A program made the position numbers and the translations under genes. The notes beneath the pieces were generated by a model that searched no databases, was not told the DNA's origin, and saw only the letters and a program-made list of their open reading frames with translations. Below are positions 1 through 58,715 of a stretch of 64,000 nucleotides of DNA, piece by piece (position 1 is the first letter of the stretch; every line of letters starts with the position of its first letter). Source of the DNA: an uncultured virus (IMG/VR IMGVR_UViG_3300032287_003803) (lineage: Duplodnaviria > Heunggongvirae > Uroviricota > Caudoviricetes). The DNA is taken from IMG/VR virus record IMGVR_UViG_3300032287_003803. One strand, given 5' to 3'.

Positions 1-10
1 AATAGTCTTT

Positions 11-74
11 GAAGAGAGACGGCAATCGGAAAATGCCCCTAATAGGCTAGTAGGTTCAAACCCTACCCTCTTCT
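11..74 (+). ncRNA. tRNA-like element with a vestigial anticodon arm
   Basis: Acceptor-like GAAGAG/CTCTTC, D-like GGCA-ATCGGAAAA-TGCC, T arm GTAGG-TTCAAAC-CCTAC; only CCTAATAGG where the anticodon arm should be. Confidence 0.45.
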
Positions 75-181
75 TTCCTTTTAATCAATAAAAAAATATG
101 CTAAGACTAGAATCGTCAACTACTTCTGTAAATGCCGCTTGGCATTATCTCCTGGAAAACAAATGCAGTTTCAGCGCCCCT

Positions 182-391
182 GTGCAAATGCTTTCTTCTC
201 GCGCCTTGCAAATGGTTTCTTCTCGCGCCTTGCAAAAGGCAAAACTTAAACCCCTCGCGCCGATTGAAACTAAAGTAAGAATCCTCTCTAGGGCTAACGC
301 TAAAAAGAAAGCAAAAACTTTCTTGCTTAAAGCAGAGGAAAAAATCTCAAACCTCGTAAAAAAAATCTCAAACCTCGTAAAAAAAATCTCT
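182..391. repeat. Short tandem repeats (24-bp TGCAAATGSTTTCTTCTCGCGCCT x2; 21-bp AAAAATCTCAAACCTCGTAAA x2)
   Basis: Directly visible duplications. Confidence 0.8.
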
Positions 392-455
392 AGGCGGTGA
401 TAAGACAAAGGGGGGTGGAGAGGTTAGTGTTGTTCCTCTCTGCCCCCTAAGTTCT

Positions 456-504
456 CCTAGGTGATTTACCTAGGCCAGGCGGCCTGGGGTAGGTAAAATT
501 CCTA
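456..504. repeat. Palindromic cassette-boundary element, copy 1 (core 465-497)
   Basis: TTTACCTA-GG-CCAGGC-G-GCCTGG-GG-TAGGTAAA with flanking CCTAGG / CCTA. Confidence 0.9.
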
Positions 505-793
505 CTCTTTCTTAAGAAAGATGCCTAAGAAGACTATTTAAGACTTTCCTATTTAGTATTAGGGCGTTTCGAATTTGGATTTTTATCTTTTTCTATTTGA
601 CGGAAGCGTTTTTGCATCTATAGTAGAAACATGAACCACAAAGTTGGCACAATCTCAGACCGCGAATTAAAAAAGCGCGTGCGCAAAGACCTGCCGCCGC
701 CGCCGCAGAAACATAAAAGCGCCAAGGACTACCGCCGCAAAGAAAAAAACAAAAAAGACTTGCCAGAAGAATAAAAACTGTTATCTTGCCAGC

Positions 794-1171
794 ATGACCC
801 AAGCACAATTCCACAACAAAGTTCTGACTCATTACTTTGAAGCTCGCAATAAAAAACGTAATCATGCAATCTCTCAAACGATTGCGGAAATCGAAAGCAA
901 ATCAAACGAGGCAGATCAAACAAAACAAAAGCTTTTACCTAAAATGACCAAAGGGAAAGCTAAACCGTTTGAATCAATGGAATTTTATGAAGCGCGGGGC
1001 GTTTATGCCGCCCTTCTTGGTTTGGCTTACACATTGCGAGAAGCACGCAAGCAAATCTTTTACGACATTGATAAAATTGCTCACTTGACAAGGCCAGAGT
1101 GGAATGGCCGCGAACCTTTGCGGGAAGAAGTTGACACCGAAAAAATGTATGAAATTTTAAGTGACGTATAA
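794..1171 (+). CDS. Hypothetical phage protein
   Basis: 125-aa ORF; promoter TTGCCA-N16-TATCTT ends 6 nt before the ATG. Confidence 0.75.
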   Translation: MTQAQFHNKVLTHYFEARNKKRNHAISQTIAEIESKSNEADQTKQKLLPKMTKGKAKPFESMEFYEARGVYAALLGLAYTLREARKQIFYDIDKIAHLTRPEWNGREPLREEVDTEKMYEILSDV

Positions 1172-1267
1172 ACTTTCTTGACTTTCTCTCGCCTAGGGGA
1201 CAAGAGGCTCCATGCCTCGATCAACGGAGAAATCCCGCGACTTACCCTAGGTGGGGGGCTTAATACG

Positions 1268-1307
1268 TTTACCTATGCCAAGCGGCCTGGGGTAGGTAAA
1301 ATCCCTA
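1268..1307. repeat. Palindromic element, copy 2 (core 1268-1300)
   Basis: TTTACCTA-TG-CCAAGC-G-GCCTGG-GG-TAGGTAAA. Confidence 0.9.
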
Positions 1308-1449
1308 TGCTCTCTTAGGGAACACTCCTAGGGGATAACCTTGTCAAGCACTTTCTAAAAGCGTGCCAAGTTTACAAGAATAAAAAAGAATAAAAAACGC
1401 ACAAAATGATTTGCGCTCTTTCTTTGCGTGTGCTAAGTTTACCTTGCCT

Positions 1450-1689
1450 ATGAAAAAACAAACACAAGCCATTGATGTGCTGGTCAACCTAGTTGACTGG
1501 ATGATGACAAACAGCCGCGAAAACCTCGCGCCTGCTTTTGAAGCCTTGAAACTTGATGCGGACACAATCTTCTCTGCTTTCGACTTTGCCTATGGCGAAG
1601 AAGAGGAAGAAGATTCAAGCGAGCATCTTGTTCCTCGCTCGCAAGTTCGTCAGGAATTGCGTGCTATGGGAGTTGACATTGAAGACTAA
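1450..1689 (+). CDS. Small acidic hypothetical protein
   Basis: ATG at 1450 just downstream of TTGCGC...TAAGTT promoter-like sequence; acidic EEEEED tract. Confidence 0.7.
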   Translation: MKKQTQAIDVLVNLVDWMMTNSRENLAPAFEALKLDADTIFSAFDFAYGEEEEEDSSEHLVPRSQVRQELRAMGVDIED

Positions 1690-1708
1690 TCTGCTACCTT
1701 GCATTCCT

Positions 1709-2344
1709 ATGATGACACCGACAATTGCTAAACAATTAACTGGCGGGCTTTCCAAGCCTTCTAAAATGCCAGGCTTTGCCTACTCTATCCCTGCGCAAGC
1801 GTGCGGGGTTGGTTCGCGCCTTCGCACTGTGCAAGGCTCCATCTGCTCGAAGTGCTACGCTCTAAAGGGGCGCTACGTTTTCAGCAACGTGAAAAATGCC
1901 TTGTATCGTCGCCTTGCTTCTCTTGTTAATCAAGAGTGGGTTGAAGCGATGGCGTTTCAAATTAATCATGCCTCTGTGAATGTTTTCCGCTGGCATGATG
2001 CGGGCGATTTGCAATCCCTCGAACACTTGGAAAAAATCGCGGCAGTTTGCGAGGCTACGCCCGACGTGCGCCACTGGCTCCCGACTAGGGAATACGCTAT
2101 CGTGACAGAATACAAGGAAAAGCATGGCGCGTTTCCCGCCAATCTTAACATTAGGCTTTCTGCCTACATGATGGATGGCCCCTTGCCTACTGGCGCTGCT
2201 GAACGCCTAGGCGTCACAGTGTCGGGCGTTACTAGTGACCCTAGCAAAGTCACCTGCCCCGCCTACAAACAAGGCGGCGTGTGCGGCAGTTGCCGCGCCT
2301 GCTGGGATAAGAATCAAGACGTAGTAATGTATCCTAAACACTAA
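1709..2344 (+). CDS. Gp88-like Cys-rich (Fe-S / radical-SAM-like) phage protein
   Basis: LSKPSKMPG, C-x12-CxxCYA, FRWHDAGD, HWLPTRE, C-terminal CPA...CxxCRACW; promoter TTGACA-N16-TACCTT upstream. Confidence 0.8.
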   Translation: MMTPTIAKQLTGGLSKPSKMPGFAYSIPAQACGVGSRLRTVQGSICSKCYALKGRYVFSNVKNALYRRLASLVNQEWVEAMAFQINHASVNVFRWHDAGDLQSLEHLEKIAAVCEATPDVRHWLPTREYAIVTEYKEKHGAFPANLNIRLSAYMMDGPLPTGAAERLGVTVSGVTSDPSKVTCPAYKQGGVCGSCRACWDKNQDVVMYPKH

Positions 2345-2412
2345 TGGAAATTCTAATTGTTTTTCTTATAGCGATGCTCGCCACGCTGGTCAGATCAAGG
2401 TAAACTCCTACG

Positions 2413-2440
2413 AGGGGGGCGGGAAACCGCCCTCTTTTTT
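2413..2440 (+). terminator. Intrinsic terminator
   Basis: GGGCGG-GAAA-CCGCCC followed by T run. Confidence 0.85.
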
Positions 2441-2450
2441 AGGCTCCATC

Positions 2451-2499
2451 CCTAGGGAATTTACCTAGGCCAGGCCGCCTGGGATAGGTAAAACTCCTA
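2451..2499. repeat. Palindromic element, copy 3 (core 2460-2492)
   Basis: TTTACCTA-GG-CCAGGC-C-GCCTGG-GA-TAGGTAAA. Confidence 0.9.
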
Positions 2500-2678
2500 T
2501 GCCCACATAGGAACATTCCCTAAGCATTCAATTACCGTGCCAACTTCGCAAAAACTTTTGTGCAAAAAACTTCGGCCATAATGCAGAAACACGTTGTCTT
2601 TTGTTTTTGATGTGGTATCTTTACCCACGTTCAAAACAGAACGCTTCAACGAACCAAAACCAAAACACGAAAAATACT

Positions 2679-3449
2679 ATGTCACTCCTCATCGCCAAAA
2701 ACAAAATCTCCGCCGAACAACTCGCCACTGTCGCCACTCCTGAGAAAACCGAATCTTTCCAGCCAATCGGCCACGCCTATCTGGTTGACCAGATGCGCGA
2801 GGCAATCGCCCGTGCTGGCTACAACGTGAAAGAGGAGGAACACGCGCTCGCCCGCATGGGTCAGCGTTACTTCGGCGGCTTCGTCATTACTGGTAAAAAC
2901 ATCGACGCAACTGATCGCCAGCTTGTGCTCGGTTTGCGCAACGCGCACGACAAGAGCTTCGCGGCTTCTGTGTGCATTGGGAATCGAATGATCGTTTGCG
3001 AAAACCTTTGTTTCGCCAGTGACATCAAACTCGCCCGCAAGCATACCACGAACATCATGCGCGACATTCCCCGCGTTCTCGGCGAGGCTGTGGGTCGCCT
3101 TGTCTCTCACTTCACCGACATGCAGAACCGCATCGAAAACTACAAGACCTTCGAGCTTGTCGAAGATGAGGCCGCTGGCTTGATCGTGAAACTGGCAGAT
3201 GCCAAGGCGATTCCTGCCCGCGAGGTTTACCCCATTATGCAGCAATTCCGCACGCCTAACCATCCTGAGTTCAACGGCCATACGCTGTGGAGTCTCTACA
3301 ATGGCGTGACAGAATGCCTTAAGGGCGGCGACTTGAGCAAGCTGCCCGCCCGCACCATGACCATGCAGAGTGTCTTCGATGCTCGCGTAGGTCATCGCCC
3401 TATCATCGAAGCGGAGATTGACACTGCCGAGCTTGTGATGGAAGCGTAA
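2679..3449 (+). CDS. DUF932-family protein
   Basis: LGLRNAHDKSFAA...GNRMIVCENLCF...RKHT, and TLWSLYNGVTE motifs typical of DUF932. Confidence 0.8.
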   Translation: MSLLIAKNKISAEQLATVATPEKTESFQPIGHAYLVDQMREAIARAGYNVKEEEHALARMGQRYFGGFVITGKNIDATDRQLVLGLRNAHDKSFAASVCIGNRMIVCENLCFASDIKLARKHTTNIMRDIPRVLGEAVGRLVSHFTDMQNRIENYKTFELVEDEAAGLIVKLADAKAIPAREVYPIMQQFRTPNHPEFNGHTLWSLYNGVTECLKGGDLSKLPARTMTMQSVFDARVGHRPIIEAEIDTAELVMEA

Positions 3450-3462
3450 GCAAAACCTCTAC

Positions 3463-3489
3463 GGGGGGCGGGAAACCGCCCCCTTTCTT
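3463..3489 (+). terminator. Intrinsic terminator
   Basis: GGGGGCGG-GAAA-CCGCCCCC-TTTCTT. Confidence 0.85.
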
Positions 3490-3499
3490 ATGCCCTACA

Positions 3500-3548
3500 C
3501 CTAGGAGTTTTACCTATGCCAGGCCGTCTGGGCTAGGTAAACTACCTA
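3500..3548. repeat. Palindromic element, copy 4 (core 3509-3541)
   Basis: TTTACCTA-TG-CCAGGC-C-GTCTGG-GC-TAGGTAAA. Confidence 0.9.
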
Positions 3549-3608
3549 AGCAATAAAAAATAGATAAAAAAGAGTTGATTCCTTCTCTGTTTCTGTTATC
3601 TTACCCCC

Positions 3609-3920
3609 ATGAACGCAATCAAAGAAATTCTTGTTAACGGCGGCTACGTCACTGCCGCCCATCATGCCGAACTCGCTTCGGAGTTTCCGAATCTTACAGT
3701 GTGCGTCAAGTGGGGCGCAGGAACTCGCCAGCTTACCACACTCGACAAGCTGGACAGTGTGATGGAAGCGGGTGAAGCTCGCGGCGACTATGTTCGCGAA
3801 GTTTTTGTCCCCGTCTCGGTTTTTGACAAGCTCCGCGAAGCTTTCGGCATCACAGACGAAGATCAAAGGAAATACTATCAAGAACTAGAAATGCAATCAA
3901 AACTCTCTGGCCTATCATGA
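3609..3920 (+). CDS. Hypothetical protein, paralog A of 4746-5030
   Basis: Close protein similarity to 4746-5030; promoter TTGATT-N16-TATCTT 6 nt before ATG. Confidence 0.85.
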   Translation: MNAIKEILVNGGYVTAAHHAELASEFPNLTVCVKWGAGTRQLTTLDKLDSVMEAGEARGDYVREVFVPVSVFDKLREAFGITDEDQRKYYQELEMQSKLSGLS

Positions 3921-4276
3921 AAACCGTTCGCATCTATCGAAACCTACACAAGAAATGCCTCTCTGTTCTTCACAAGACGGAAAGAGGCTGGAGGCTTTGG
4001 AAACACGTTCCGCGCATTGAAGTTTTTAATGTAGTTTTTAAAGTGTCGCAAGCTGGGCGCGAGCGAGTGCTGAAAGAAAAGCGCAAAAATGTTCATGCTT
4101 TCATCGAAGGTGACTACGCTGGCGTGACAAATGTGACAAGCTCTAACCTTCGCTTTGTTAGATATAATCCCTATGTGGCTGGGCACTTCTTTGATCAGGA
4201 TACGAAAAAAGCCGTAAAAGAATCTTCTTGGGCTTTTGTAAACGAAAAAGGCATCATGGCCATAAATGTTCTCTAG
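3917..4276 (+). CDS. Conserved phage hypothetical protein
   Basis: YRNLH...VSQAGRERVLKEKRKNVHAF...YNPY pattern common in phage early regions; ATGA overlap with upstream gene. Confidence 0.8.
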   Translation: MKTVRIYRNLHKKCLSVLHKTERGWRLWKHVPRIEVFNVVFKVSQAGRERVLKEKRKNVHAFIEGDYAGVTNVTSSNLRFVRYNPYVAGHFFDQDTKKAVKESSWAFVNEKGIMAINVL

Positions 4277-4281
4277 GCAAA

Positions 4282-4308
4282 GGGGGGGCGGGAAACCGCC
4301 CCTTTTTT
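4282..4308 (+). terminator. Intrinsic terminator
   Basis: GGGGCGG-GAAA-CCGCCCC-TTTTTT. Confidence 0.85.
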
Positions 4309-4318
4309 ATGCCAATGT

Positions 4319-4360
4319 CCTAGGGAAATTACCTAGGCGAAGCCGCTTGGGATAGGTAAA
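4319..4360. repeat. Palindromic element, copy 5 (core 4328-4360)
   Basis: ATTACCTA-GG-CGAAGC-C-GCTTGG-GA-TAGGTAAA. Confidence 0.85.
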
Positions 4361-4426
4361 ACATGTAAGCAATAAAAACAGATAAAAAAAGAGTTGCGAG
4401 GTTCTCTTTTTCTGCTATCTTCTCAC

Positions 4427-4741
4427 ATGGACACGAAAAACATCACCGAACAAATCGAAACCTTCCGCGTTGCCTTGGAAAACATGCTGCTGGAATATCG
4501 CATCGCACCCTTCCCCACGCTGCCAGCGCCCACTGTGGAAATCTCCACTGGCAAACGCTTTGCGCGAATCATTAAAAAAGATGGTTCTAGCGTTTCCGCT
4601 TATGGTTTTATTGATCTAAGCAATGGCGACTTGCTCAAAGCGGCGTCATGGAAAGCGCCAGCCATGCACGCTCGCGGAAACATTTTCAATCAGGACATTC
4701 TTTCTGGTTGCGGCCTTTATGGAATGGCGTATCTTAAATAA
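4427..4741 (+). CDS. Conserved phage hypothetical protein
   Basis: FIDLSNGDLLKAASWKAPA..ARGNI motif; promoter TTGCGA-N16-TATCTT 5 nt before ATG 4427. Confidence 0.8.
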   Translation: MDTKNITEQIETFRVALENMLLEYRIAPFPTLPAPTVEISTGKRFARIIKKDGSSVSAYGFIDLSNGDLLKAASWKAPAMHARGNIFNQDILSGCGLYGMAYLK

Positions 4742-4745
4742 CACC

Positions 4746-5030
4746 ATGAACACAATAAAAGAAATCCTAGTCAATGGCGGATACGTTTCCGCCGCTCATC
4801 ATGCCGAACTTGTTTCGGACTTTCCGAATCTTACAGTGTGCGTGAAGTGGGGCGCGGCCCCTCGCCAAAGCACCACGCTCGGCCAGCTTGACAGCGTAAT
4901 CGAAGCGGGCGAAGCTCGCGGCGATTATGTGCGCGAGGTTTTCGTGCCCGTTCTTGTTCTCGACAAACTGCGCGAGGCTTTCGGAATCACGGAAGAAGAT
5001 CAAAAAGAATACTATAAAAACCTCCAATAG
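4746..5030 (+). CDS. Hypothetical protein, paralog B of 3609-3920
   Basis: MNTIKEILVNGGYV...CVKWGA...ARGDYVREVFVP shared with 3609-3920. Confidence 0.85.
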   Translation: MNTIKEILVNGGYVSAAHHAELVSDFPNLTVCVKWGAAPRQSTTLGQLDSVIEAGEARGDYVREVFVPVLVLDKLREAFGITEEDQKEYYKNLQ

Positions 5031-5035
5031 TAAAG

Positions 5036-5058
5036 AAGCGCGGGAAACCGCGCTTTTT
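5036..5058 (+). terminator. Intrinsic terminator
   Basis: AAGCGCGG-GAAA-CCGCGCTT-TTT. Confidence 0.85.
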
Positions 5059-5069
5059 CGTGCCCTCTA

Positions 5070-5118
5070 CCTAGGAGATTTACCTATGGCAAGCGGCCTG
5101 GGCTAGGTAAAACCCCTA
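5070..5118. repeat. Palindromic element, copy 6 (core 5079-5111)
   Basis: TTTACCTA-TG-GCAAGC-G-GCCTGG-GC-TAGGTAAA. Confidence 0.9.
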
Positions 5119-5156
5119 CCCTCACTAAGAAATTCCAGTATGTTTCCTAGGAGTCT

Positions 5157-5266
5157 TTATTACGCATATTCTCGTTCAGTTATTAGGAGTTTTCTCTTTC
5201 ATTATTACGCATTCTCTTATTTGCTATTAAGGCGTTTCGAATTCATTATTAGGACGAATCGCGCTC
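5157..5266. repeat. Degenerate ~22-bp tandem repeats (TTATTA-led, 5 units)
   Basis: Units begin at ~5157, 5180, 5202, 5224, 5246. Confidence 0.6.
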
Positions 5267-5482
5267 ACTTTGGTTGTTTCTTTAAGCTCTTTTTTAAAGA
5301 GATTTTTTAGTTTGGCTCGAACAGCGGTGCCGTCTTTTTTGTGATATTTAGAGCTGTTCATGGAACCATCATTATATTTGCGATAGTGAGCTTTCATAAG
5401 GCTATAAGATAGACGTGGTTATTATTAAGTAAACTGTTTTTTGTTTCACTTATTAGAAGAAATCGCGCTACTTATTAGGTGG

Positions 5483-5557
5483 TGGCACGCTCGGAAGAAA
5501 TCGAATCTTCATCACTGATTTAGAAAAACAGGGCTTTATCCATTAAGCTACGAGCGC
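5483..5557 (-). tRNA. tRNA-Arg(UCU)
   Basis: GCGCTCG/CGAGCGT acceptor, loop TT-TCT-AA, T arm GAAGA-TTCGATT-TCTTC, encoded CCA. Confidence 0.9.
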
Positions 5558-5599
5558 GTTTGCCTCCCCCTTTCGGGGGAAGCGGCTAACGAACCACCA

Positions 5600-6508
5600 T
5601 TAACCAATTGTTTCCAAGAGACGCAAGCCTTGACTTGTGATCTCGCGTTTCGTGTCGATGCGCAGGAGATTCATCTTGAGCAAGTGAAGCTCTGCATCTT
5701 TGCGGAGAGCTTGAACGCTAAGGCCAGTGATGGCGCTGAGCATTGTGAGAGTTAAGGGGCCGCGCTCTTTGAGAGCAGAGAGAATCTGAATCTCTGTATT
5801 GGTAAGGCCGCGCTTGTTGATGTTGGCTTTGTGGCATAGGCTAGCCCAATCTTCGGTGGAGAAGTCAGGGTTGTTCTTTGCCTCACAATACATTTCGATT
5901 TCTTTTGCACGCTTGACTGCGCTGCGAGCATTGCCGCGAATTGTCGTGGCGATGTCATCAAGAACACCAGCGGCGAACTTCACAGCAGGAATGCGCTTCT
6001 TGATGATGTCCTTCACTTCGCTGTTGCTATAGGGGACAAAATCAACAACAGTAAGGCGATCCTTGAATGGCGCAAACAAACGATCCATTTCAGTCGTTGC
6101 GAAGATGAGGCTCATTTTGGAGAAGTCGAAAACGTATTCGACATCTTGATGAGTGTATTCAACGACTGTTTTCTTTTCTGTGTTTAGGATAGAGAGAAAA
6201 GCAGCGACGAGCTTCTTGGGCAGTTCATGACTCTCATCAAATAGAAGACAACATTCCGTGTCTTGGATTTGAGGCATCATCTGTTCGAAAAACTGCTTTT
6301 CACTTTTAATGGAAGCACTATTGATTTCATAAAAGGTTTTTTTACATGCTGCGCCAACTGCGCGAGCAAATTCAGTTTTACCAATACCTCTCTGTCCATT
6401 GAACATGAGAAAAGGTAAAACGCCAGTGGCTCGATGAGCGTCCAAATAAAAAGAAAGTTGGCGCTTGATGTGTTCTTGTCCGACGATGTTTTTGAATGCT
6501 TGGTTCAT
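5600..6508 (-). CDS. ruvB: Holliday junction branch-migration helicase RuvB-like AAA+ ATPase
   Basis: F..IVGQ.HIK N-terminus, Walker A GQRGIGKT, Walker B LLFDESH, LIFATT, RGNAR sensor, C-terminal winged helix. Confidence 0.85.
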   Translation of the reverse strand: MNQAFKNIVGQEHIKRQLSFYLDAHRATGVLPFLMFNGQRGIGKTEFARAVGAACKKTFYEINSASIKSEKQFFEQMMPQIQDTECCLLFDESHELPKKLVAAFLSILNTEKKTVVEYTHQDVEYVFDFSKMSLIFATTEMDRLFAPFKDRLTVVDFVPYSNSEVKDIIKKRIPAVKFAAGVLDDIATTIRGNARSAVKRAKEIEMYCEAKNNPDFSTEDWASLCHKANINKRGLTNTEIQILSALKERGPLTLTMLSAITGLSVQALRKDAELHLLKMNLLRIDTKREITSQGLRLLETIG

Positions 6509-6606
6509 AGTAGTGGTGGTTCGTGTGAGCAATTAATATAGGTAAAAAGTTGTCAGTGTCAACGTTAATTTGAAGAAAAATTGAACTAAAAATGTAATAT
6601 ATATGA

Positions 6607-7296
6607 ATGAATTATTCCAAAATCTACAGCGATTTAATCGAGTCCGCTAAACTCCGACCAAACTTACCATTATTAAATGGCTATACAGAAAAACATCATA
6701 TTATTCCTCGTAGTATGGGAGGTTCTAACGATAAAGAGAATATTGTTTCTTTAACGGCTAGAGAACATTTTGTAGCTCATTGGTTGCTTTGGAGAATTCA
6801 TAGAAATAAAGAAATGGCGTTTGCCTTCGCTTGTATGTTTAGAAACAACAAACAAAATATTCGATCTGATAAACGTTATAAAAATGGAAGAGCTTTTCAA
6901 GAAGCTAAAGAAGCTATAAGTAAAGTTTTAAAAGGAAAAGTAGGCGTCAAACGCTCAGAAGAGACAAAACAAAAAATTTCACAATCTCACTTGGGTAAAA
7001 AAGCTTCGCCTTTAGCTCGTAAAAAATTATCTGATTATGCCAGAAATAGAAATCCTGAGCATAAAGAAAAAATTGCTAAATCTAGTTTGGGCAGAAAAGC
7101 TTCCGAAGAAACAAGAAGAAAAATTTCTTCCTTTCATCAAGGAAAAGAAAAATCAGAAGAGCATCGTCGCAAAATAGGTGAAGCTAATAGTAGAAGAGTC
7201 GTTACTCAAGAAACTAAAGAAAAATTATCTCGCCTCGCTAGAGAGAGACACCGACGCAAATTAGAAGAAAGAGGCGAGTTACCGCCCCTTTCTTAA
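6607..7296 (+). CDS. Free-standing HNH homing endonuclease with NUMOD3-type repeats
   Basis: EKHHIIPRSMGGSN..ENIV.LTAREHFVAH; repeated SEET(K/R)xKIS motifs; opposite strand to neighbours. Confidence 0.9.
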   Translation: MNYSKIYSDLIESAKLRPNLPLLNGYTEKHHIIPRSMGGSNDKENIVSLTAREHFVAHWLLWRIHRNKEMAFAFACMFRNNKQNIRSDKRYKNGRAFQEAKEAISKVLKGKVGVKRSEETKQKISQSHLGKKASPLARKKLSDYARNRNPEHKEKIAKSSLGRKASEETRRKISSFHQGKEKSEEHRRKIGEANSRRVVTQETKEKLSRLARERHRRKLEERGELPPLS

Positions 7297-7306
7297 AAGT
7301 TTTTAT

Positions 7307-7594
7307 TTATTCTGCTCCTACCAGAATTTCTTCGGGTGAGGCGGCAAGCGCTTCACACTCCTCATCAAAGCGGGTTACGCTGAACTGAATCTGCGGCTCT
7401 GGTTCGACAATTGTGACGGTTTCAGCGACAACCAGAGGCGTAGGCTTCTCGACAGAAATTCCATATTCCCTCAAAAATATTGCGCCAACAGGAATCGCAA
7501 TGTCTTGATTAAAAAGCTCATTAAGCTGGCGAAGAGTGATGTTGACAAGGCTTTTTGCTCCTGCTGGGCGTCCGCGTTTAGGTTGTGAGTTCAT
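7307..7594 (-). CDS. Hypothetical protein with AT-hook-like KRGRP N-terminus
   Basis: ORF with own promoter TTGACA-N16-TATATT. Confidence 0.7.
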   Translation of the reverse strand: MNSQPKRGRPAGAKSLVNITLRQLNELFNQDIAIPVGAIFLREYGISVEKPTPLVVAETVTIVEPEPQIQFSVTRFDEECEALAASPEEILVGAE

Positions 7595-7602
7595 AGTGGT
7601 GT

Positions 7603-7632
7603 TAATATAAGGACTTTTTATTCAGTGTCAAG
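7603..7632 (-). promoter_or_regulatory. sigma70-type promoter (identical copy at ~7827-7856)
   Basis: TTGACACTGAATAAAAAGTCCTTATATTA on - strand, twice. Confidence 0.85.
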
Positions 7633-7634
7633 AA

Positions 7635-7820
7635 TTATTCGTGAGGAAGTTGTTCTAAAACTTTGACAAAAATTTGTTCCAAATCTTCCATTTGTTCAAT
7701 GTAGTCAAGAGAACCTTTTTCAAAATAACCAACACAGTAATTAAGGTTGTCAAAGAAAGAAATTGCTTCTTCGGTTTGGAACCAGTTAATGAGTGATTGT
7801 GCAAGATGTTTTGTTTTCAT
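7635..7820 (-). CDS. Small hypothetical protein
   Basis: ORF with adjacent promoter. Confidence 0.65.
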   Translation of the reverse strand: MKTKHLAQSLINWFQTEEAISFFDNLNYCVGYFEKGSLDYIEQMEDLEQIFVKVLEQLPHE

Positions 7821-7841
7821 GGTGGATAATATAAGGACTTT

Positions 7842-8039
7842 TTATTCAGTGTCAACAGCTTTCTCAAAGTTATTCACGATGAAGTTGCCATGCTCGTCAG
7901 TGCTAGCAAGAGACAAATCAAAAGCTGCGTCTGCGATTTCATCAACAGTATCAGCGTTCCATTCCTTCTCGCGCTCAAGCAAGCGCAAAACATAAATAGT
8001 AAATAAGCGGCAGCGGTGTTCGTGGAGTTCTTTGTGCAT
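7842..8039 (-). CDS. Small hypothetical protein
   Basis: Promoter TTGACG-N16-TATATT a few nt before ATG. Confidence 0.65.
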   Translation of the reverse strand: MHKELHEHRCRLFTIYVLRLLEREKEWNADTVDEIADAAFDLSLASTDEHGNFIVNNFEKAVDTE

Positions 8040-8830: not shown

Positions 8831-8860
8831 TTATTAAGAAAAATCGTGTTCGTAAATTAG

Positions 8861-8933
8861 ATGTGGCCCTGAGAATCGAACTCAGCTTGCAAGCTTATGA
8901 GACTCGCCAGACTACCAAGCCTAGCCAACCGCG
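8861..8933 (-). tRNA. tRNA with CAU anticodon (Met/Ile2-like), weak acceptor stem
   Basis: Loop CT-CAT-AA, T arm CTGAG-TTCGATT-CTCAG; mismatched acceptor, no encoded CCA. Confidence 0.65.
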
Positions 8934-14840: not shown

Positions 14841-15389
14841 ATGATAACCAAAGAAAAATTAGAAAATTATTTAAAAGAAAATTTAACTAAATCGCAAATC
14901 GCCCAACAAGAAAATGTAACTATTTCAACAGCATCTTCGTGGATCAAAAAATATAAATTAAGTTATAGTCGCCGTTCAATACAGAATTGTGTTGTATGCA
15001 ATAACCCTCTTTGTGGCAATCAAACTAAATTTTGTTCTCTAGAATGCCATAACAAGTTAAATAATAAAAAATATCAAGGGTATTCTCAGCAACGTCAGCG
15101 AGGTATTGAAAAAAAATTAAAATTAATAGCTTTGAGAGGTTCTAAATGCGAATATTGCGGATATAACAAAAATCTTGCATCATTACAGTTTCATCATATT
15201 GATCCCAATGAAAAAGACGATCAGATGGATATGCGAAAACTATCTAATTCTACTTGGGAATGGTGCCTAAAAGAATTCGCAAAATGTCAAGTGTTATGCG
15301 CTAATTGTCATGCTGAAACTCATTTTCCACATTTAGAGATTTCAAAATTAGTACTCCCGCCAAGGATCGAACTTGGAACCGCGCACTAA
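14841..15389 (+). CDS. HNH endonuclease with N-terminal HTH and Zn finger
   Basis: CEYCGY...LQFHHIDP...KCQVLCANCHAETH. Confidence 0.9.
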   Translation: MITKEKLENYLKENLTKSQIAQQENVTISTASSWIKKYKLSYSRRSIQNCVVCNNPLCGNQTKFCSLECHNKLNNKKYQGYSQQRQRGIEKKLKLIALRGSKCEYCGYNKNLASLQFHHIDPNEKDDQMDMRKLSNSTWEWCLKEFAKCQVLCANCHAETHFPHLEISKLVLPPRIELGTAH

Positions 15390-15444
15390 TCTGGTGCATA
15401 CAGAGGGTATAAGCCTCTCGCTCTGCCAATTGAGCTACGGGAGC
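15352..15444 (-). tRNA. tRNA-Ile(UAU) with long variable arm
   Basis: GCTCCCG/CGGGAGT acceptor, AGAGG-CT-TAT-AC-CCTCT anticodon arm, GCAC/GTGC variable stem, T arm CCAAG-TTCGATC-CTTGG. Confidence 0.85.
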
Positions 15445-15556: not shown

Positions 15557-15649
15557 TGGTCCCGCTGGTGAGATTTGCACTCACGGTGTTTACCACATGG
15601 GTTACGGTTTTTAAGACCGTAGCGTTTCAACTAGCTTCGCCACAGCGGG
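15557..15649 (-). tRNA. tRNA-Leu(UAA)
   Basis: CCCGCTG/CAGCGGG-A-CCA, ACGGT-CT-TAA-AA-ACCGT, long variable arm; T loop TGCAAAT. Confidence 0.85.
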
Positions 15650-19307: not shown

Positions 19308-20543
19308 TCAAGCTAATAATGAAGATATTGGTTTTCCCTTGTCAGCAATCTTGAATGGTCGCCCTTCTGGAGAGATTAAAATCTGTTCAATTGGCAAACC
19401 AGCAGCAGCCGCGATTGTAGCATTAAAATCTTGCGGCGAAACAATGCCGTCTAAAACTCTCATGCCTTTCTCATCGCTCTTGCCATAGACTTGACCACCT
19501 TTGATTCCTGCGCCAATTAAAGCACTAGAAAATGCGCCAGGATGATGATCGCGCCCATCATTAACATTAATAATTGGAGTGCGGCCAAAGTCTGTGGTGA
19601 TCACAATAAGAGTTTTCTTCAACAAGCCAGAAGCTTGCAAGTCTTCAATTAGTGCAGTGAGAGCAGTGTCCAACACCATTAATTTATCTTCTAAAGCATC
19701 AAAATTATTAACATGAGTGTCCCAGCCACCGTCTGAAACTTCAATAAACTTGCACCCACCTTGTTCAACAAGTCTCTTGGCAAGGCAAACGCCTTGACCG
19801 AAACGATTGTTGCCATATTTTTCTCGCTTCTCTGCGGATTCTTTGGTGAGGTCAAAAACATCAAGCTCGGAAGAGTTGAGCAAACGAACAGTTTGATCGT
19901 AGAATTCTGCGTAGCTTTTCTCTGATGGATTTGCAGCCTTCATCGCATCACGTTCAATCTTCTTTAAGATTTCAATGCGCTTGCTGAATTCATCTTTGTT
20001 TTTGATTTTTGCGTTTTCCAAACCGCGAAGAGGGTCTTGGATTGGAATGGGAGAATATTTCTTAGCCATCCAGCCTGCGCCAGGATGATCTGCGGGACCA
20101 CTAATTAAAACATTTTGTGGGATGTTGATTTTTTCTTCATTGTCTTGCATTCTGCACATCCAAGCTCCCATGTTTGGGTGAACGATTGTGCCAATCTTCT
20201 TGTAGCTTGTGCGCTGAAGGTATTGAGCTTGTTCGTGCGCTCCTGTGTTTACCATCATGCTGCGAATTAGTGCCATTTTATCACCATGTTTGGCGAGTTT
20301 TGGCAAGTGTTCGCTGATAGAATAGTCTGCGTTTGTATTAATAGAATTAAATTTGCCCTTCACTTCTGCATCTTTTTTAGGATCGAAAGTATCAAGATGG
20401 CTCATGCCGCCATTCATAAACAAATAAATAATGTGTTCTGCTTTGTTGGCAGATTGCGCAGCATGGATTTCTGGCAGCACAGAAACGCCTAAGCCTGCAC
20501 TGGCTAGACGAAGAACGAAGTCGCGACGATGGATAGAGTTCAT
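19308..20543 (-). CDS. DUF1501-domain protein with Tat-like signal (PVC signature family)
   Basis: RRDFV signal; LFMNGGMSHLDTFDPK, GQGVCLAKRLVE.G, GGWDTH, TDFGRTP, GRDHHP. Confidence 0.9.
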   Translation of the reverse strand: MNSIHRRDFVLRLASAGLGVSVLPEIHAAQSANKAEHIIYLFMNGGMSHLDTFDPKKDAEVKGKFNSINTNADYSISEHLPKLAKHGDKMALIRSMMVNTGAHEQAQYLQRTSYKKIGTIVHPNMGAWMCRMQDNEEKINIPQNVLISGPADHPGAGWMAKKYSPIPIQDPLRGLENAKIKNKDEFSKRIEILKKIERDAMKAANPSEKSYAEFYDQTVRLLNSSELDVFDLTKESAEKREKYGNNRFGQGVCLAKRLVEQGGCKFIEVSDGGWDTHVNNFDALEDKLMVLDTALTALIEDLQASGLLKKTLIVITTDFGRTPIINVNDGRDHHPGAFSSALIGAGIKGGQVYGKSDEKGMRVLDGIVSPQDFNATIAAAAGLPIEQILISPEGRPFKIADKGKPISSLLA

Positions 20544-20547
20544 GGGA

Positions 20548-22317
20548 TTAATTAGAGAATTTAAATTCAGTTGAATTGAGAAGTGCCCAAATAACGTCGT
20601 CGTCATTTGCGCCAAGGAATGTGGCTTTTTCAGACAGTGTTGGCTTGCGGCTCAAAATGCTTTTGTAAATAACTTCCATCTTTTCAGAGGGAGATTTGCC
20701 AACCAAAGACTTTATTAAAGTTGTTTCTTTGTTTGTGGCAACGCTGGCAAGCTGCCCATTCATGAAAGAGATGACTTGAGTTACTGAACCTTCCAAGGAA
20801 GATGTTTGAATGAGTTCTCGATCACTGCGGCCAAGCTGCGCAAGAATAGTATTTGTTTGATTGGCATCATTGATTTCAGAAGCTCTTGCAACAACAATGC
20901 TAGTGATCTTTGGCGCAAGAGAGTATTTTTCGCGCATGATTTGATTGTATTTTTCTAGCTTCATTCTCATCTTCTCTAACGAAATGTCTTCAATGGTTGT
21001 TAGCATATTTTTTGAGTATTCAGTATGAAATTCTGTTTTGTATTTTTCGGGACTCTCAACGCAAAGAGCCACAACAGAATCCCAAAGCTGCTCAGCAGAA
21101 AGCCTGCGCTTCACTGGACCAATAAAAATAAACTTTTCACTATCAGAGAAAGCTCCGCTGTATGTTTGCCGTTGAAAGAGTTTTGTGTTGCACAAAACAA
21201 ATAGAAACTTTTGGCTATCATAGTTTAAATCAACAAAAATATTAGCTAACGTATTCATTAGTTCGCTGTTTAAAGCGTCACTGTCATGAATGTTGTCATA
21301 CTCTGAAATGATGTATTTGCCAAAAATTAAGTTCCAGTAGCGATTCACAATGTTCTTTGTGAAGGTGGGATGATTAGGGTTGCAGAGCCAAGCCACTGCA
21401 TCTTGTCGCAAATCTTCTTTGTTTTTAATCTTTCCTTTACCATCAAGAGTGCTTGGAGCAACAACATCGTTTGGTTTCGCGTCTTTGTATTGGTAATCGT
21501 GAGGAAGTTTTAATTCTTTTGTTGAGACAATTTCAAGATCAGATTGAGTTGCGCGAACAAAGTTATTGATTTGATTGTTTAAGCCACGATTCTTTACAGG
21601 ATCGCTCTTGATGAGAGCGTCAATGGTTTCTCTCAAGGTTTTGATCTTTTCGCGTGTTTCTTTTGATTCTTTTGGGCGAAGCTCAACTTGATTGAACATT
21701 GCAGCCATTTTGTAGAACTGCATTTGTGTGAAGTCTTGGAAAGGATCATCGTGGCACTGTGCGCAGCTAATGTCTGTGCCTAAAAATACTTTGTTTGTGG
21801 CAATCAAATTATCAAGAGGCATTCCTACATCTCTGTAGTAGTAACCAGTGGCAGGACTAGAGTAGTAATTGCCAGAGCTTAAGAGTAAATCTTTAACAAA
21901 CAAATCGTATGGTTTGTTTGCAGCGATGCAGTCTTTGACGTAATCAATGTAGGGGCCACCATTAAAATTATTGATTGGCGAAAGCTTTTCGCGCATTCTA
22001 AGACTGTCTGCCCAAAAATTAAACATGTGCGAAACATGGCCAGGATGTTTTAACAGGTGCTTGATTAATTGTGTCTTTTTATCACTAGCAGAAGCTTCAA
22101 AATACATTTTGTGCTCTTCAAAAGTTGGATTGCGGCCAATGATTGTCAAGTATGCTCGGCGTAAAAAAACCTCTTCGCTCACTGGGGCAAGAGGTTGGAT
22201 TTTAGAGTTTAAACATTGTTTTTCGAGCACAGCGTCAATCTTTAAAGAAGAGAGGTTCAAATCAGCGCAGAAACTCCATGACACTAGACCAAACAAGATT
22301 AAAAGTATTTTTTTCAT
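20548..22317 (-). CDS. DUF1549/DUF1553-domain secreted protein (PVC signature family)
   Basis: FLRRAYLTIIGRNPT, NKPYD.FV..LL, FLG..ISCAQCHDDP (CxxCH), IVNRYW..IFG, RRLSAEQLWDS, WALLNSTEF. Confidence 0.9.
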   Translation of the reverse strand: MKKILLILFGLVSWSFCADLNLSSLKIDAVLEKQCLNSKIQPLAPVSEEVFLRRAYLTIIGRNPTFEEHKMYFEASASDKKTQLIKHLLKHPGHVSHMFNFWADSLRMREKLSPINNFNGGPYIDYVKDCIAANKPYDLFVKDLLLSSGNYYSSPATGYYYRDVGMPLDNLIATNKVFLGTDISCAQCHDDPFQDFTQMQFYKMAAMFNQVELRPKESKETREKIKTLRETIDALIKSDPVKNRGLNNQINNFVRATQSDLEIVSTKELKLPHDYQYKDAKPNDVVAPSTLDGKGKIKNKEDLRQDAVAWLCNPNHPTFTKNIVNRYWNLIFGKYIISEYDNIHDSDALNSELMNTLANIFVDLNYDSQKFLFVLCNTKLFQRQTYSGAFSDSEKFIFIGPVKRRLSAEQLWDSVVALCVESPEKYKTEFHTEYSKNMLTTIEDISLEKMRMKLEKYNQIMREKYSLAPKITSIVVARASEINDANQTNTILAQLGRSDRELIQTSSLEGSVTQVISFMNGQLASVATNKETTLIKSLVGKSPSEKMEVIYKSILSRKPTLSEKATFLGANDDDVIWALLNSTEFKFSN

Positions 22318-22391
22318 AAGCCTTTAGTATTTTACACTTTTTAAAAAGGTTTTGAAGCGTGCAATCTTTCAACATAAGTGTAAAAATAATT

Positions 22392-46981: not shown

Positions 46982-49900
46982 ATGAGTCATTTTTCTAAAA
47001 AATACATCAAAGGAATCGTTGGTGCGGGCGGTGGTAATGATTCTCCTCCTGCACCACAGCCACCAACTTTTAAACCGCCAAAATTGGGTGATTTACAAGC
47101 AATTAGTTCGTATGACTATGTAGAAAATATTGATCTAATTTCAGACGGAGAAATTGATGGTTTTGTTAACCAAAATGGAGAATATGTTGATAATATTCGC
47201 TTATTCGAAAGTATTTATTTGGAAGACGTTGCTGTTCGACAACCTATTGATAGTCAATCTTTTAATTTGATTGCGAGTTTTGACTTAAATTTTATTGCTT
47301 CGTCTTTTCAAAATAAATTTTATTCTAATTCTCAATTTATTGAGACGTTTATAACGAATCTGAGTGATTTAACTGATTCAAACACTCAAGGTATTTCTTT
47401 TTCTGTATTATCTGGTAAGGATAAAATAGCGGATTCTATTTTTCAATCAGTTAGGAATATTGAAAATGCATATTTGAATATTCAGCCAGCAAATCAAAAT
47501 GATTCAATCTTTAAACAATTAAGATTTTTAAGAGCACAGTTTAATTTCACTTCTCAAAGAGAAGTGTTGACTTATCTTTTGCCAGATTTCCCAGAATATT
47601 TTTCCACTGATTATCCATTTTTAGCATTAAAGATTTCCTTAAATGCAAATCTTGCTCCTTATGGATATTCTCATTCAATTGACGATTTGATCGTCTTATC
47701 AGACGATATTTGTAATCAAATATATTATGATTTAGAACAATCAGAACTTCAAAATAAGAAAATTTTATCTCCTAAAAAGAAAATAAATACATGTTTTTTT
47801 GAGTTTAGTGGTGGTAATATCTTTGCAAAAGGCGATTTTTATATTTTCTTTTATCAAAAGGACAATTACGTTCTCAAAAATGGTGTTGATGCAATTATCA
47901 ATTTTATTAAATCTGTTAAGGTTATCAATACCACGGCTAAATTTAATTATGCTAATGCTGTATTTGAGACTAGAGAAGGTTCTGATCTTCAAAAGCCATT
48001 AAGTTTATTTAATAAAACTTATCTAGATACGTCATTTAACTCTAAATTAAGAGGGCCATTTGAACAAGGAAAACCCGTATTAACGCTACTTAATAAAGAA
48101 TATACTGAAGTTGATTCAAGATACAATGCTTCTTCTGCTTCTGCAAATTCTGGCTTAATATCTGATTTAGAATTTAAACAAGGAACTACAGAATTTTTTT
48201 CTGTTCAAGAATTAAATGAATTAAAAACTATTCATTCTGATTTATTTAAAAATGAATCTGATTTTGTCAACTTAACAAAGCAATTGATGAGTGGAAACAC
48301 TCTATCGCTTGGTCTTTTGAATCCTGATCCAGAATTTAGAAATAGTTCTTGGTCTATTGAATCAATTAGTAAAAATGGCAATATTATTCAAATGGTATTG
48401 GCTGGTAAAATTAATTATCGTTTCTATTCAAATAATGTAACAATAACACTTTCATTTGATAAAACAACAAAATGTTTTAAGAAAAACATTGTCAAGAATA
48501 ATGGCGACCAATTTAATATATTGGCTACTGATACTATTTATATCATAAATTATTTGAATGATTTTATTAGTACAAATAGTTTTGATATTACTGTTATTTA
48601 CTATCCAACTGAAACTTTTCTAACATCATACTCTCCTTCAATTGGTTGGCCTTTATTTTTTAGAATCGCTTGTCGAGCACTATTGGAAGGCGCTTATGCA
48701 AACGAAGGTAGTGATGATTTTAGAAAGGCTGGTGGTACTCTAGAGAGCTATACCAATTGGAATAAAAATTATGTCAAATATTTGTCAGAACCTGGTTCAA
48801 GAATTACGCATATTGTTTTGAACCCAAATGTTGATCAGGTATTTGCCTCTTTACAAATTACTTCTTTACAAGATACGGCACAACAAAATTTATTTTTATT
48901 AAAAGCCGATGGAACAAAGGAAGATGTTCAAGCTGGAACAAATATTCCATCCATAATTGAATTTAAAATTGAAACTGGCTATCAAACTTTAACTGGAGAA
49001 GAAGAGCTGTTCGTTTCAAGATTATTCCAAGTGAAAGGGTTGATTAACTCGCCGACAACAATTGATGTTGGCCGCGAAGAAAATTCATCAGTAATTCAGC
49101 AGTATAGCAGATTTATTCTTGGAACAGAAAATATAGCTCAACCAATTTCATTACCGCCTTATGAGGCCAATAAAAACAGGTTCGTAAGAGTTTATAGGGT
49201 AACTGCCGAGTCCTACTCTTCTCTTGTAAGACGCGAAATTTATTTAAATAAAATTACAGAAATTATTAATGTTCCGTTTTCTTATCCATATTCAACCATT
49301 TGTGGATTAAAACTAGACGCTAGAACATTCAGTTCAATTCCGTCTCGTAGTTATGATGCGCGATTTAAAAAAGTTTTTGTTCCAAGCAATTATTTCCCAT
49401 TAAAACCAAGTGGTCAAGATAAAAGATACATCGCTGGTAAAAATTTAGCCTCTTTCAATCAACTGTCGAATTCAAGCGATGAAAAAATAATTTACAAAGG
49501 CAATTGGGATGGAACATTTAAATTAGCTTGGACAGATAATCCTGTTTGGGTCTTATTTGATATTTTAATCAATCGCAGATATGGATTGGGCAATTTCGTT
49601 TCTCCGTCTGAGGTTAACTATTGGGAGCTTTACAAGATTGGGCGTTACTGCGATGCTGTTGACTCAAACGGCGTGTTTGCTGGAGTTTCTTCCGCAGATG
49701 GCGGCTTGGAGCCTAGATACGCTTTTAATGGAGTGATTGCTGATAAATCAAATGTATTTGATTCACTTAAATCTCTGATTGCTTGTTTCAGAGGAAACAT
49801 GTTCTACACAAACTCTGAAATTAACTTTACGAACGATAGATTAAAGCCAATCATGGCTTTTTTCAACAATGCAAATGTGAAGGACAGCATGTTTAACTAC

Positions 49901-58097: not shown

Positions 58098-58715
58098 CTA
58101 CTGCTTCAAAAATCTATGATATAAATCAATAGATTTATGATGAACAGAAGTGAACCTGTCCTTCATTTCTTTAGACCAAACCTCTCCAGTATATGTTGTT
58201 GCCCAAAGTTTTTTATCTCTGTCAATTTTTAAATCGAATTGTTTTTCTACAAAATCTTGTGCCTCATGATAACGATCATAAACAAACACTTTGTCAATTG
58301 CTAACTCGCCATTAAAGTGAGTGTATTCATATTGATTGATATAATGGTTTAAATTCTTAAATGAGTTTTTTTCATCTGATAAGATAAAATGCTCTAGCGA
58401 AGGAATCTTCATGAGTATTTTCATTTGATTATATAAGCTTGTGACTTGATCAAATGGATTTCTTAATACAGTAAATTTTAAATATGAATTAGCCTGCAAA
58501 AACTTGTAATACTCTGAAATATAGCTGTGAGAGTGTCCGAGAGCAGTGTATTTTTGTATTCCGTCCATCGCTCCTCTAATTGTAAATAACTTATAAGAGT
58601 CTGTGTCGAGATTAGAGCTTTCTGGAAGATGTTTTTTACAAATAGCGAATTCTAAACTAGAGCCTCCAGTTTTAGGAATATGTATAAAAATAGTTCTATA
58701 AACTGAAAAAAACAT
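58098..58715 (-). CDS. Sulfotransferase (family 2)
   Basis: IFIHIPKTGGSSLE, FTVLRNPFDQVTSLY. Confidence 0.85.
   Translation of the reverse strand: MFFSVYRTIFIHIPKTGGSSLEFAICKKHLPESSNLDTDSYKLFTIRGAMDGIQKYTALGHSHSYISEYYKFLQANSYLKFTVLRNPFDQVTSLYNQMKILMKIPSLEHFILSDEKNSFKNLNHYINQYEYTHFNGELAIDKVFVYDRYHEAQDFVEKQFDLKIDRDKKLWATTYTGEVWSKEMKDRFTSVHHKSIDLYHRFLKQ

Follow-up and report, generated by a model that had tools for sequence, protein, structure and literature searches.

Positions 456 to 5,118 of the 64,000-nucleotide stretch analysed here (the window; one strand of IMG/VR virus record IMGVR_UViG_3300032287_003803, from an uncultured member of the Caudoviricetes) hold a row of small genes parted into units by six copies of an imperfect palindrome, and raise the question of what such a site does between units of this kind. 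An earlier note, made from the letters alone, proposed either recombination sites for the shuffling of early genes (attC-like hairpins of single-stranded DNA, or recombinase sites) or binding sites controlling DNA entry or early transcription. A predicted binding site acting in early transcription fits the anatomy best: the six palindromes would be protein-bound boundary or regulatory elements of an array of immediate-early units, also supplying the homology by which these units are shuffled, a reading based on sequence in which we place about even confidence.

All six 33-bp cores are found at 465, 1268, 2460, 3509, 4328 and 5079 with zero to three mismatches to their consensus, and the core had no match in 100 dinucleotide-preserving shuffles of the window. 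A scan of the whole 64 kb with TTACCTA-N17-TAGGTAA (at most one mismatch, 0.01 sites expected) returns the same six sites only. CCTAGG begins 9 nt upstream of the core in five of six copies (copy 2 being the exception) and CCTA 3 nt downstream in five of six (copy 5 being the exception), as the earlier note had it. Its two TAGG-N7-CCTA dyads around a central dyad are likewise present, but the extent of 33 or 47 bp has to be enlarged, the conserved block extending 10 nt beyond TTACCTA on one side and 10 nt beyond TAGGTAA on the other and measuring 51 bp. In the aligned copies this block is a three-part palindrome, CCTAGG-n3-TTTACCTA-nn-CCAGGC-n-GCCTGG-nn-TAGGTAAA-n3-CCTA-a-G, i.e., two TAGG-N7-CCTA dyads 32 bp apart on either side of a G+C-rich core (CCAGGC-n-GCCTGG), each dyad having a long inner half-site (TTTACCTA or TAGGTAAA) and a short outer one (CCTA). 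The TAGG and CCTA blocks within an element are spaced by 11, 21 and 11 bp, about whole helical turns.

The element is kept in relatives: 31 contigs from related uncultured phages yielded 146 copies, always within a single array of early units (matches lacking the G+C centre and copies at most 15 nt from a contig end are excluded). These contigs come from a scan of viral contigs, which found element arrays on nine records, five of them taken in full or in part (G002-G006), and from a metagenome scan, which found 45 contigs with the element, 25 of them with at least two copies; the 20 single-copy contigs were left out of later counts. In G002-G006 all copies lie in a single array per record. Since some contigs may be one sequence filed twice, counts are given as distinct sequences. 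The alignments comprised 41 distinct sequences from six records (39 when cut to 65 nt), and later 99 distinct 61-mers, in all 99 of which 15 columns are invariant with free variation between them; the invariant columns include the T-A of the outer TAGG and the outer CCTA, neither required by the search pattern. Presence of the G+C core implies intact outer arms, as 82 of the 87 CCWGG-N(1-5)-CCWGG cores found in the arrays belong to detected elements and the remaining five to an unrelated motif. The inner G.G mismatch ascribed to every copy holds for all six in the window but not as a rule of the family, where the mirror pair is G/G in 58, G-C in 25 and C/C in 5 of the 99 distinct copies; with G/G 58 vs C/C 5, the element has a polarity.

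Only three isolated matches were obtained in one genome per species from 185,579 bacterial and archaeal species, so the element is not a host repeat, and blastn of a 55-bp element against 50,697 GenBank phage records gave no match. In relatives the array spans about 8-10 kb and is internal, between a leftward block with large terminase, PhoH-like and sigma-like proteins and a leftward block beginning with a RuvB-like gene. Base 1 of the window corresponds to position 24008 of G002, the stop codon of the preceding gene, and four more elements lie upstream in relatives; because the window thus begins inside the array, it includes just the final six of the array's roughly ten elements.

Judging from its distribution, the building block of the element is the 15-bp dyad TAGG-N7-CCTA. 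Among TAGG-Nk-CCTA arrangements the window has 16 at k=7 (0.22 expected), all within 51-5118, and none at k=0-6 or 8-14; the other 58.7 kb have none at k=7. Six of these dyads are not part of a palindrome and start at 51, 1316, 2152, 2440, 2508 and 3388. The arrays of G002-G006 each contain four to five solo k=7 dyads outside elements, against zero to one at each of the spacings 0-6 and 8-14, and outside the arrays there are two in G003 and none in the other four. The words themselves are similarly confined: all 13 CCTAGG sites of the window fall within 1-5300 and none in the other 58.7 kb, and CCTA or TAGG occurs 55 times in 1460 intergenic bases vs 24 times in 3740 coding bases. As expected of a repeated operator, TAGG-N7-CCTA is a short, invariant, dyad-symmetric site at regulatory positions. 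A second conserved motif, ..TATTAGGGCGTTTCGAATTT.., occurs at window 550-578 and 5225-5245 and at about 22305-22350 of G002, upstream of some array promoters and just past the array end, and may be another regulatory site.

The unit anatomy described by the earlier note is borne out: each unit consists of a promoter, one or two genes, in four cases a terminator, and the palindrome (Table 1). Copies 3-6 are indeed preceded by G+C-rich hairpins, which have a GAAA loop and are followed by a T-run, with about 15 nt from the start of the T-run to that of CCTAGG. The promoters are sigma-70-like, with 16-17 bp spacers and A-rich upstream tracts, and lie 34-113 bp past the elements. By the likeliest mechanism, a sequence-specific dimeric protein, of phage or host origin, would bind the dyads, probably as two dimers per element and also at the solo dyads nearby. 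Placed past the terminator or hairpin of a unit and before the next strong promoter, the bound protein would act as an insulator of the tandem early units or turn them off, possibly as a roadblock backing up termination or as a repressor acting at a distance; bound to the left dyad, it would lie immediately in front of a polymerase that pauses at the T-run.

The genes of the array look early, from their sigma-70-like promoters with A-rich tracts and from their codon usage. AGA accounts for 4 of 76 Arg codons in array genes vs 135 of 396 in other genes, TTA for 4 of 106 vs 194 of 801 Leu codons, and ATA for 2 of 62 vs 67 of 786 Ile codons. These three codons, common in the low-G+C bulk of the genome, are those of the phage's own tRNAs, and their avoidance fits expression of the array genes before these tRNAs are available. 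The ATG lies 5-10 nt past the -10 hexamer in six cases, which implies leaderless mRNAs.

Cassette content also varies at the element, in part. Four aligned flank switches (Table 1), in which an element joins the left flank of one type to the right flank of another, bear out that cassettes differ or are reordered there; most differences between close relatives nevertheless fall inside cassettes. Flanks were typed by best-match scoring and alignments, a single-linkage clustering having proved too coarse as it merged right flanks through their shared A-rich promoter tracts. Among the more distant arrays, the cassette strings of the 31 contigs differ by gain, loss and reordering of whole cassettes. 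A comparison of 11 representative arrays of the 31, restricted to matches no shorter than 200 bp, gave 878 homology ends, of which 158 (18%) lie within 30 bp of an element centre vs 6.9% of random positions, about 2.6-fold, and 35% vs 22.8% lie within 100 bp; the element is a preferred junction, not the sole one. Between the window, G002, G003 and sequencing runs X2, X4 and X5 (four runs were compared with the window, as contigs only), the differences are mainly gene-sized indels at promoter/ATG or stop/terminator boundaries, such as a gene insertion directly after the promoter at window 640/646 and a deletion (4741->5032) that leaves G002 and runs X2, X4 and X5 without the paralogue at 4746-5030. 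In G003 (reverse-complemented), a cassette between elements at 15734 and 16086 is empty, the promoter module being followed directly by the terminator module with the gene or genes gone exactly from ATG to stop. Apparent circle or skip joints at 504, 1270 and 2460-2493 proved to be cross-matches of the repeated element and not circle junctions. Terminator and palindrome, with or without promoter, recur between units 4-6 as repeats of about 80-140 bp (3459-3602 vs 4284-4418 and 5032-5113). Recurring stretches of some 50-80 bp (terminator and palindrome, sometimes with promoter) would serve as homology patches between all units, and because the repeat recurs between all of them, exchange could proceed by ordinary homologous recombination, between co-infecting relatives or neighbouring copies, that deletes, inserts or reorders whole cassettes.

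The palindrome could be kept as a folding strand or as a duplex site. In the 99-sequence alignment a long-hairpin model has 89.9% of its cells paired vs 90.2% in shuffles (470 of 500 shuffles being at least as high), two pairs changed on both sides vs 4.5, and a covariation score of 0.030 vs 0.033; changes in the inner stem go uncompensated, pair 12/18 being A.C in 20 of 99 copies and pair 14/16 unpaired in 32 of 99. Wobble pairs gave no consistent folding strand (pair 12/18, A.C 20 vs G.T 2 of 99; pair -3/33, G.T 27 vs A.C 32), and this test was discarded. Folding energies of the six 51-mers as single strands of DNA lie between -6.4 and -12.1 kcal/mol (z -0.6 to -3.8), copy 1 preferring three small hairpins and copies 5 and 6 folding poorly (z -1.8 and -0.6, with 50 of 200 shuffles of copy 6 folding at least as well), and a central hairpin of 5-bp stem and 3-nt loop is predicted for copies 1 and 3 only. 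With arms that are invariant and do not covary, the palindrome is kept by conservation of arm sequence and not by pairing, which argues for a symmetric protein that recognises the DNA duplex, and against an attC-like, IS200-like or RNA hairpin. The attC-like hairpin of the earlier note is thus not supported, given also the modest folding and the promoter in each cassette, and a predicted protein-binding site on double-stranded DNA fits better. A hairpin of RNA or single-stranded DNA with another role (an RNase III site, a 3'-end stabiliser, a backup terminator or a hairpin promoter of the N4 type) could draw on the long imperfect palindrome itself, whose roughly 22 pairs with internal loops can be likened to the RNase III sites of phage T7, on the stem and loop that its central part can form, and on elements 1 and 2, which have no canonical terminator upstream and hence may be transcribed. 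Yet four of the six copies lie past a good intrinsic terminator, hence would rarely be transcribed, no T-run follows the element on either strand, and Rfam, on window 1-6000, returned only a tRNA (5486-5557) and two sub-threshold chance matches, so the element has no Rfam family. Together with the missing compensatory changes, these points make a hairpin role very unlikely. N4-type promoters combine a 5-7 bp stem and a 3-nt loop with a giant virion RNA polymerase; here the corresponding hairpin is predicted in copies 1 and 3 only and does not covary, and in the window, which covers part of the genome, the largest open reading frame (ORF) encodes a tail protein of 1381 aa.

Dedicated sites for site-specific recombination, of an attC-like, lox/dif-like or HUH/Y1 kind, would agree with an element that bounds cassettes and across which flank types switch, with its polarity, as in crossover sites, and with inverted arms around a variable centre, like the core sites of recombinases. 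No tyrosine or serine recombinase and no Y1/HUH protein is found among the scanned window ORFs, in line with the earlier statement that no integrase is visible there, and Phage_integrase (PF00589), Resolvase and Y1_Tnp (PF01797) are also unmatched in all five related fragments searched (for PF00589, G001-G004 and G006), which together with the window show roughly half of the expected genome. The enzyme would then be encoded elsewhere in a genome of roughly 137 kb, a size suggested by the completeness of the nearest record (G001, a 35.8-kb fragment rated 26% complete and without the element). The absent covariation and weak folding, unlike attC or IS200/IS605 ends, the solo dyads of strict N7 spacing, which would have no role outside elements, the promoter in each cassette and the position of most breakpoints elsewhere make this explanation distinctly unlikely. 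The palindrome might instead be a linker without biochemical role, spread and homogenised by recombination or gene conversion and persisting as the cassettes that carry it move more. The 80-140 bp repeats and the resemblance, by eye, of element cores within a genome agree with this, as does the precedent of repeats that can drive shuffling in T4-type phages, given in the excerpted text of PMC2839356. However, 15 invariant columns with free variation between them and solo dyads at exact spacing look like purifying selection on specific contacts, and direct repeats around every cassette should cause loss, so that something keeps them; a passive linker is accordingly unlikely. As for DNA entry or evasion of defences, the palindromes could cause pauses in genome ejection, or could be decoys or protected sites with respect to a host enzyme specific for CCTAGG or CCWGG or to a nucleoid protein of the host, in keeping with the confinement of CCTAGG to the array region, the two CCWGG words per core, and an array that looks like the earliest-expressed DNA. 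The array is internal in assembled relatives, between the terminase block and an early block, and the invariant bases reach well past CCTAGG, leaving this the most improbable of the explanations considered.

Several observations weigh against protein-bound boundary elements as well. No recognisable DNA-binding domain was found in the ORFs scanned near the array, among which many small ones have no assignment (a 95-aa ORF at 7307-7594, considered as a possible binder, has no Pfam match and only viral clusters in the Atlas), and the varying element-promoter distance of 34-113 bp is unlike a classical operator overlapping its promoter. The polarity of the element is superfluous for the site of a symmetric homodimer, and a protein-site model offers no reason why the G+C core should itself be palindromic. 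Since the search pattern tolerated no more than two mismatches, part of the constancy of the seven-base arms follows from the search itself. With regard to shuffling, about 80% of homology ends lie away from elements, and adjacency is variable within cassettes too, being kept in 280 of 478 comparisons there and in 155 of 392 across elements, counts that overstate the number of events as copies on related contigs are not independent.

Among known systems, integrons resemble the array, with tandem small cassettes in one orientation, an imperfect palindrome each and content that differs between relatives. Their attC sites have core sites R'' and R' of the form RYYYAAC / GTTRRRY and conserve structure rather than sequence, whereas the arms here (TTTACCTA / TAGGTAAA) are not such core sites and are conserved in sequence without covariation. 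Moreover, integron cassettes are promoterless, whereas here a promoter, and often a terminator too, belongs to each cassette, and no PF00589 integrase accompanies them in the genome as far as sampled. The KorB/OB system of IncP plasmids, in which a palindromic operator at variable distances from many promoters effects global shut-down, resembles the array: here too an incoming mobile element has one palindromic site repeated near many promoters, at distances that vary. A KorB-domain match of 22.7 bits inside a sulfotransferase-like ORF (58098-58715) is probably due to chance, and no credible ParB/KorB-like protein was found among the ORFs scanned. Repetitive extragenic palindromes (REP) or bacterial interspersed mosaic elements (BIME) with their RAYT transposase do not describe the element, with its three isolated matches in the genome collection and no PF01797, nor does a CRISPR array with spacers of 25-50 bp, the spacing here being 750-1200 bp and containing genes. 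Stoperators, repressor sites found in many intergenic copies in temperate phages, are asymmetric, 13 bp long and bound by a monomer; aligned with the direction of transcription, they halt RNA polymerase during elongation. The sites here are dyad-symmetric, and there is no sign of lysogeny. The stoperators of Cluster A mycobacteriophages are, on the excerpted account in PMC9283540, published cousins of the site.

The closest parallel in T4-type phages is that of the promoter-early stem-loop elements (PeSLs), which, in the excerpts of PMC2839356 and PMC4122927, are intergenic repeats in which a terminator stem-loop is joined to a strong promoter of the sigma-70 type that has an A/T-rich tract upstream. 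Such repeats cluster in a part of the genome that is plastic and holds small genes without known function, with repeat-bounded indels and replacements and an exchange thought to be homologous (same excerpts). The same combination of promoter, A/T-rich tract and terminator repeats here over about 80-140 bp in units 4-6, and repeat-bounded indels, replacements and reordering occur between relatives here too, enriched 2.6-fold and not exclusive. What differs is a third component, the 51-bp palindrome between terminator and promoter, which is the best conserved part, and the setting, with siphovirus-type tail genes and a T4-type nucleotide match only in the homing-endonuclease gene at 6607-7296; the likeness is one of analogy. 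Cluster O mycobacteriophages carry a 17-bp dyad, TGTTCGG-N3-CCGAACA, in tens of copies genome-wide, many intergenic, of unknown function and presumed to be a regulator site, and one gene flanked by direct repeat copies is read as an indel by recombination (PMC4351075, in its excerpted parts). Invariant inverted-repeat arms around a variable centre are common to both, as far as that excerpt describes them, but the site there is a single 17-bp dyad, whereas here it is composite, confined to one array and present once per unit.

Early regions hold the fastest-changing anti-defence weapons of phages, and their exchange is known in detail for few lineages, the PeSLs among them. Here a different lineage, uncultured and from freshwater, shows this modular logic too, with the addition of a DNA site that is very precisely conserved. 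As the site has a clean 15-bp dyad of fixed spacing, its function can be tested directly, and the 31 related arrays are a natural data set for the frequency of cassette movement at a defined site. If the element is both insulator and crossover point, it would amount to a compact design for arranging strong promoters in tandem, and to a part of use in engineering. By a further step, which we consider possible but doubtful, the array would be a recombinase-free, integron-like platform on which a lytic phage exchanges immediate-early genes, probably ones of anti-defence or host takeover, the element being both an insulator and a selected crossover point for whole cassettes between co-infecting phages; regulation and evolvability would then be coupled in one site.

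Table 1. Features of the array and its surroundings (window positions, except for flank switches, where contig and element number are given).
Feature	Location	Strand	Remarks
Boundary element 1	456..506	+	CCTAGG-n3-TTTACCTA-GG-CCAGGC-G-GCCTGG-GG-TAGGTAAA-n3-CCTA; fifth element of relatives G002, G004
Boundary element 2	1259..1309	+	without upstream CCTAGG; inner arm CCAAGC, giving A.C mismatch
Boundary element 3	2451..2501	+	extra solo dyads on either side, 2440-2454 and 2508-2522
Boundary element 4	3500..3550	+	ends 34 bp before -35 hexamer of next promoter
Boundary element 5	4319..4369	+	degenerate inner arms CGAAGC/GCTTGG; without downstream CCTA
Boundary element 6	5070..5120	+	last of array; degenerate inner arm GGCAAGC
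Solo TAGG-N7-CCTA dyad	51..65	+	upstream of gene 98-400; conserved in G002, G004, G005
Solo TAGG-N7-CCTA dyad	1316..1330	+	starts 23 bp past start of right dyad of element 2
Solo dyad	2440..2454	+	overlaps terminator T-run and left CCTAGG of element 3
Solo dyad	2508..2522	+	starts 23 bp past start of right dyad of element 3
Intrinsic terminator	2412..2440	+	GAAA loop, T-run; T-run starts ~15 nt before CCTAGG of element 3; read from sequence
Intrinsic terminator	3463..3491	+	upstream of element 4
Intrinsic terminator	4282..4308	+	upstream of element 5; read from sequence
Intrinsic terminator	5036..5059	+	upstream of element 6
Promoter TTGACG-16-TATAGT	597..624	+	ATG 6 nt past -10
Internal promoter TTGCCA-16-TATCTT	760..787	+	ATG at 794, 6 nt past -10
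Promoter TTGCGC-17-TAAGTT	1411..1439	+	A-rich upstream tract; ATG at 1450; read from sequence
Promoter TTGTCT-16-TATCTT	2594..2621	+	of DUF932 gene; read from sequence
Promoter TTGATT-16-TATCTT	3575..3602	+	A-rich UP-like tract; ATG 6 nt past -10; read from sequence
Promoter TTGCGA-16-TATCTT	4394..4421	+	A-rich UP-like tract; ATG 5 nt past -10; read from sequence
Ten cargo genes	98..5030	+	GC 0.49 vs 0.38 in the window's other genes
Cargo gene	98-400	+	
Cargo gene	631-774	+	
Cargo gene	794-1171	+	
Cargo gene	1450-1689	+	
Cargo gene	1709-2344	+	Gp88 (PF17338)
Cargo gene	2679-3449	+	DUF932
Cargo gene	3609-3920	+	
Cargo gene	3917-4276	+	L5 gp82-like
Cargo gene	4427-4741	+	DUF7717
Cargo gene	4746-5030	+	paralogue of 3609-3920
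tRNA-Arg (TCT)	5483-5557	-	
tRNA-Met (CAT)	8860-8933	-	
tRNA-Ile (TAT)	15351-15444	-	
tRNA-Leu (TAA)	15557-15649	-	
Flank switch	JACCDP010974013 E1		left = G002 E2, right = G002 E4; alignment
Flank switch	JACCDW012104868 E6		left E8, right E10; alignment
Flank switch	G006 E5		left E6, right E8-type promoter; alignment
Flank switch	Ga0315903_10017863 E4		left E5, right E2; alignment

Judged by its genes, the source is an uncultured large tailed phage with siphovirus-type tail genes: a lambda-J-like tail tip (46982-51127), tail assembly proteins, rIIA/rIIB, thymidylate synthase, SSB, dUTPase and a sigma-like protein are encoded. The tail-tip protein has only distant matches (below 30% identity) by tblastn, and window 1-8000, compared by blastn with the same 50,697 phage records, matches only in the homing endonuclease. 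G+C content is 44-52% in bases 1-5200 vs about 36% in the rest of the window. All or part of the stretch occurs, as contigs, in 20 of 22 listed sequencing runs, none of these 20 being an RNA data set; the runs containing it are mostly labelled freshwater or lake, and some fungus metagenome. Two large genes of Planctomycete-type families (DUF1501; PSCyt2 and PSD1) lie within the phage genome at 19308-22317 (- strand); they may be host-derived auxiliary genes and give a hint of the host group.

Among the cargo, gene 98-400 has two short tandem duplications, both in frame (SSRALQ.. and ISNLVKK), that are missing from its 85-aa orthologues in G002-G005. Relatives' arrays also carry several small acidic proteins, including a small and very acidic family starting with MQFS.TAEDMHA, present in two or three paralogous copies per array in the first cassettes of G002-G006; they may be DNA mimics or serve host takeover in another way. 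Shine-Dalgarno sequences are nearly absent at gene starts throughout the window and a TATAAT-like hexamer stands 6-10 nt before the ATG in many, which suggests that leaderless mRNAs are widespread in this phage.

Past the array, a 20-nt direct repeat (85% identical) occurs in non-coding DNA before tRNA-Arg, at 5246-5265 and 5450-5469, 204 bp apart. The repeats at 5156-5491 were considered as iterons or an origin, a reading partly dropped since one of three 20-nt copies (5472-5491) lies inside the 3' end of tRNA-Arg. Directly after the array comes a full-length RuvB-like AAA+ protein (5600-6508, - strand; PDB 1j7k, E 1.4e-15, residues 6-292), which has the same place in relatives; the neighbourhood of a Holliday-junction motor and a palindrome array may be coincidence or may bear on shuffling. 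Next to it lies a MobE-like HNH homing endonuclease (6607-7296, + strand; phrog_655, E 1e-52) with 68-78% nucleotide identity to genes of T4-type phages, which sits between the RuvB-like gene and the ORF at 7307-7594, two genes that are adjacent in G003.

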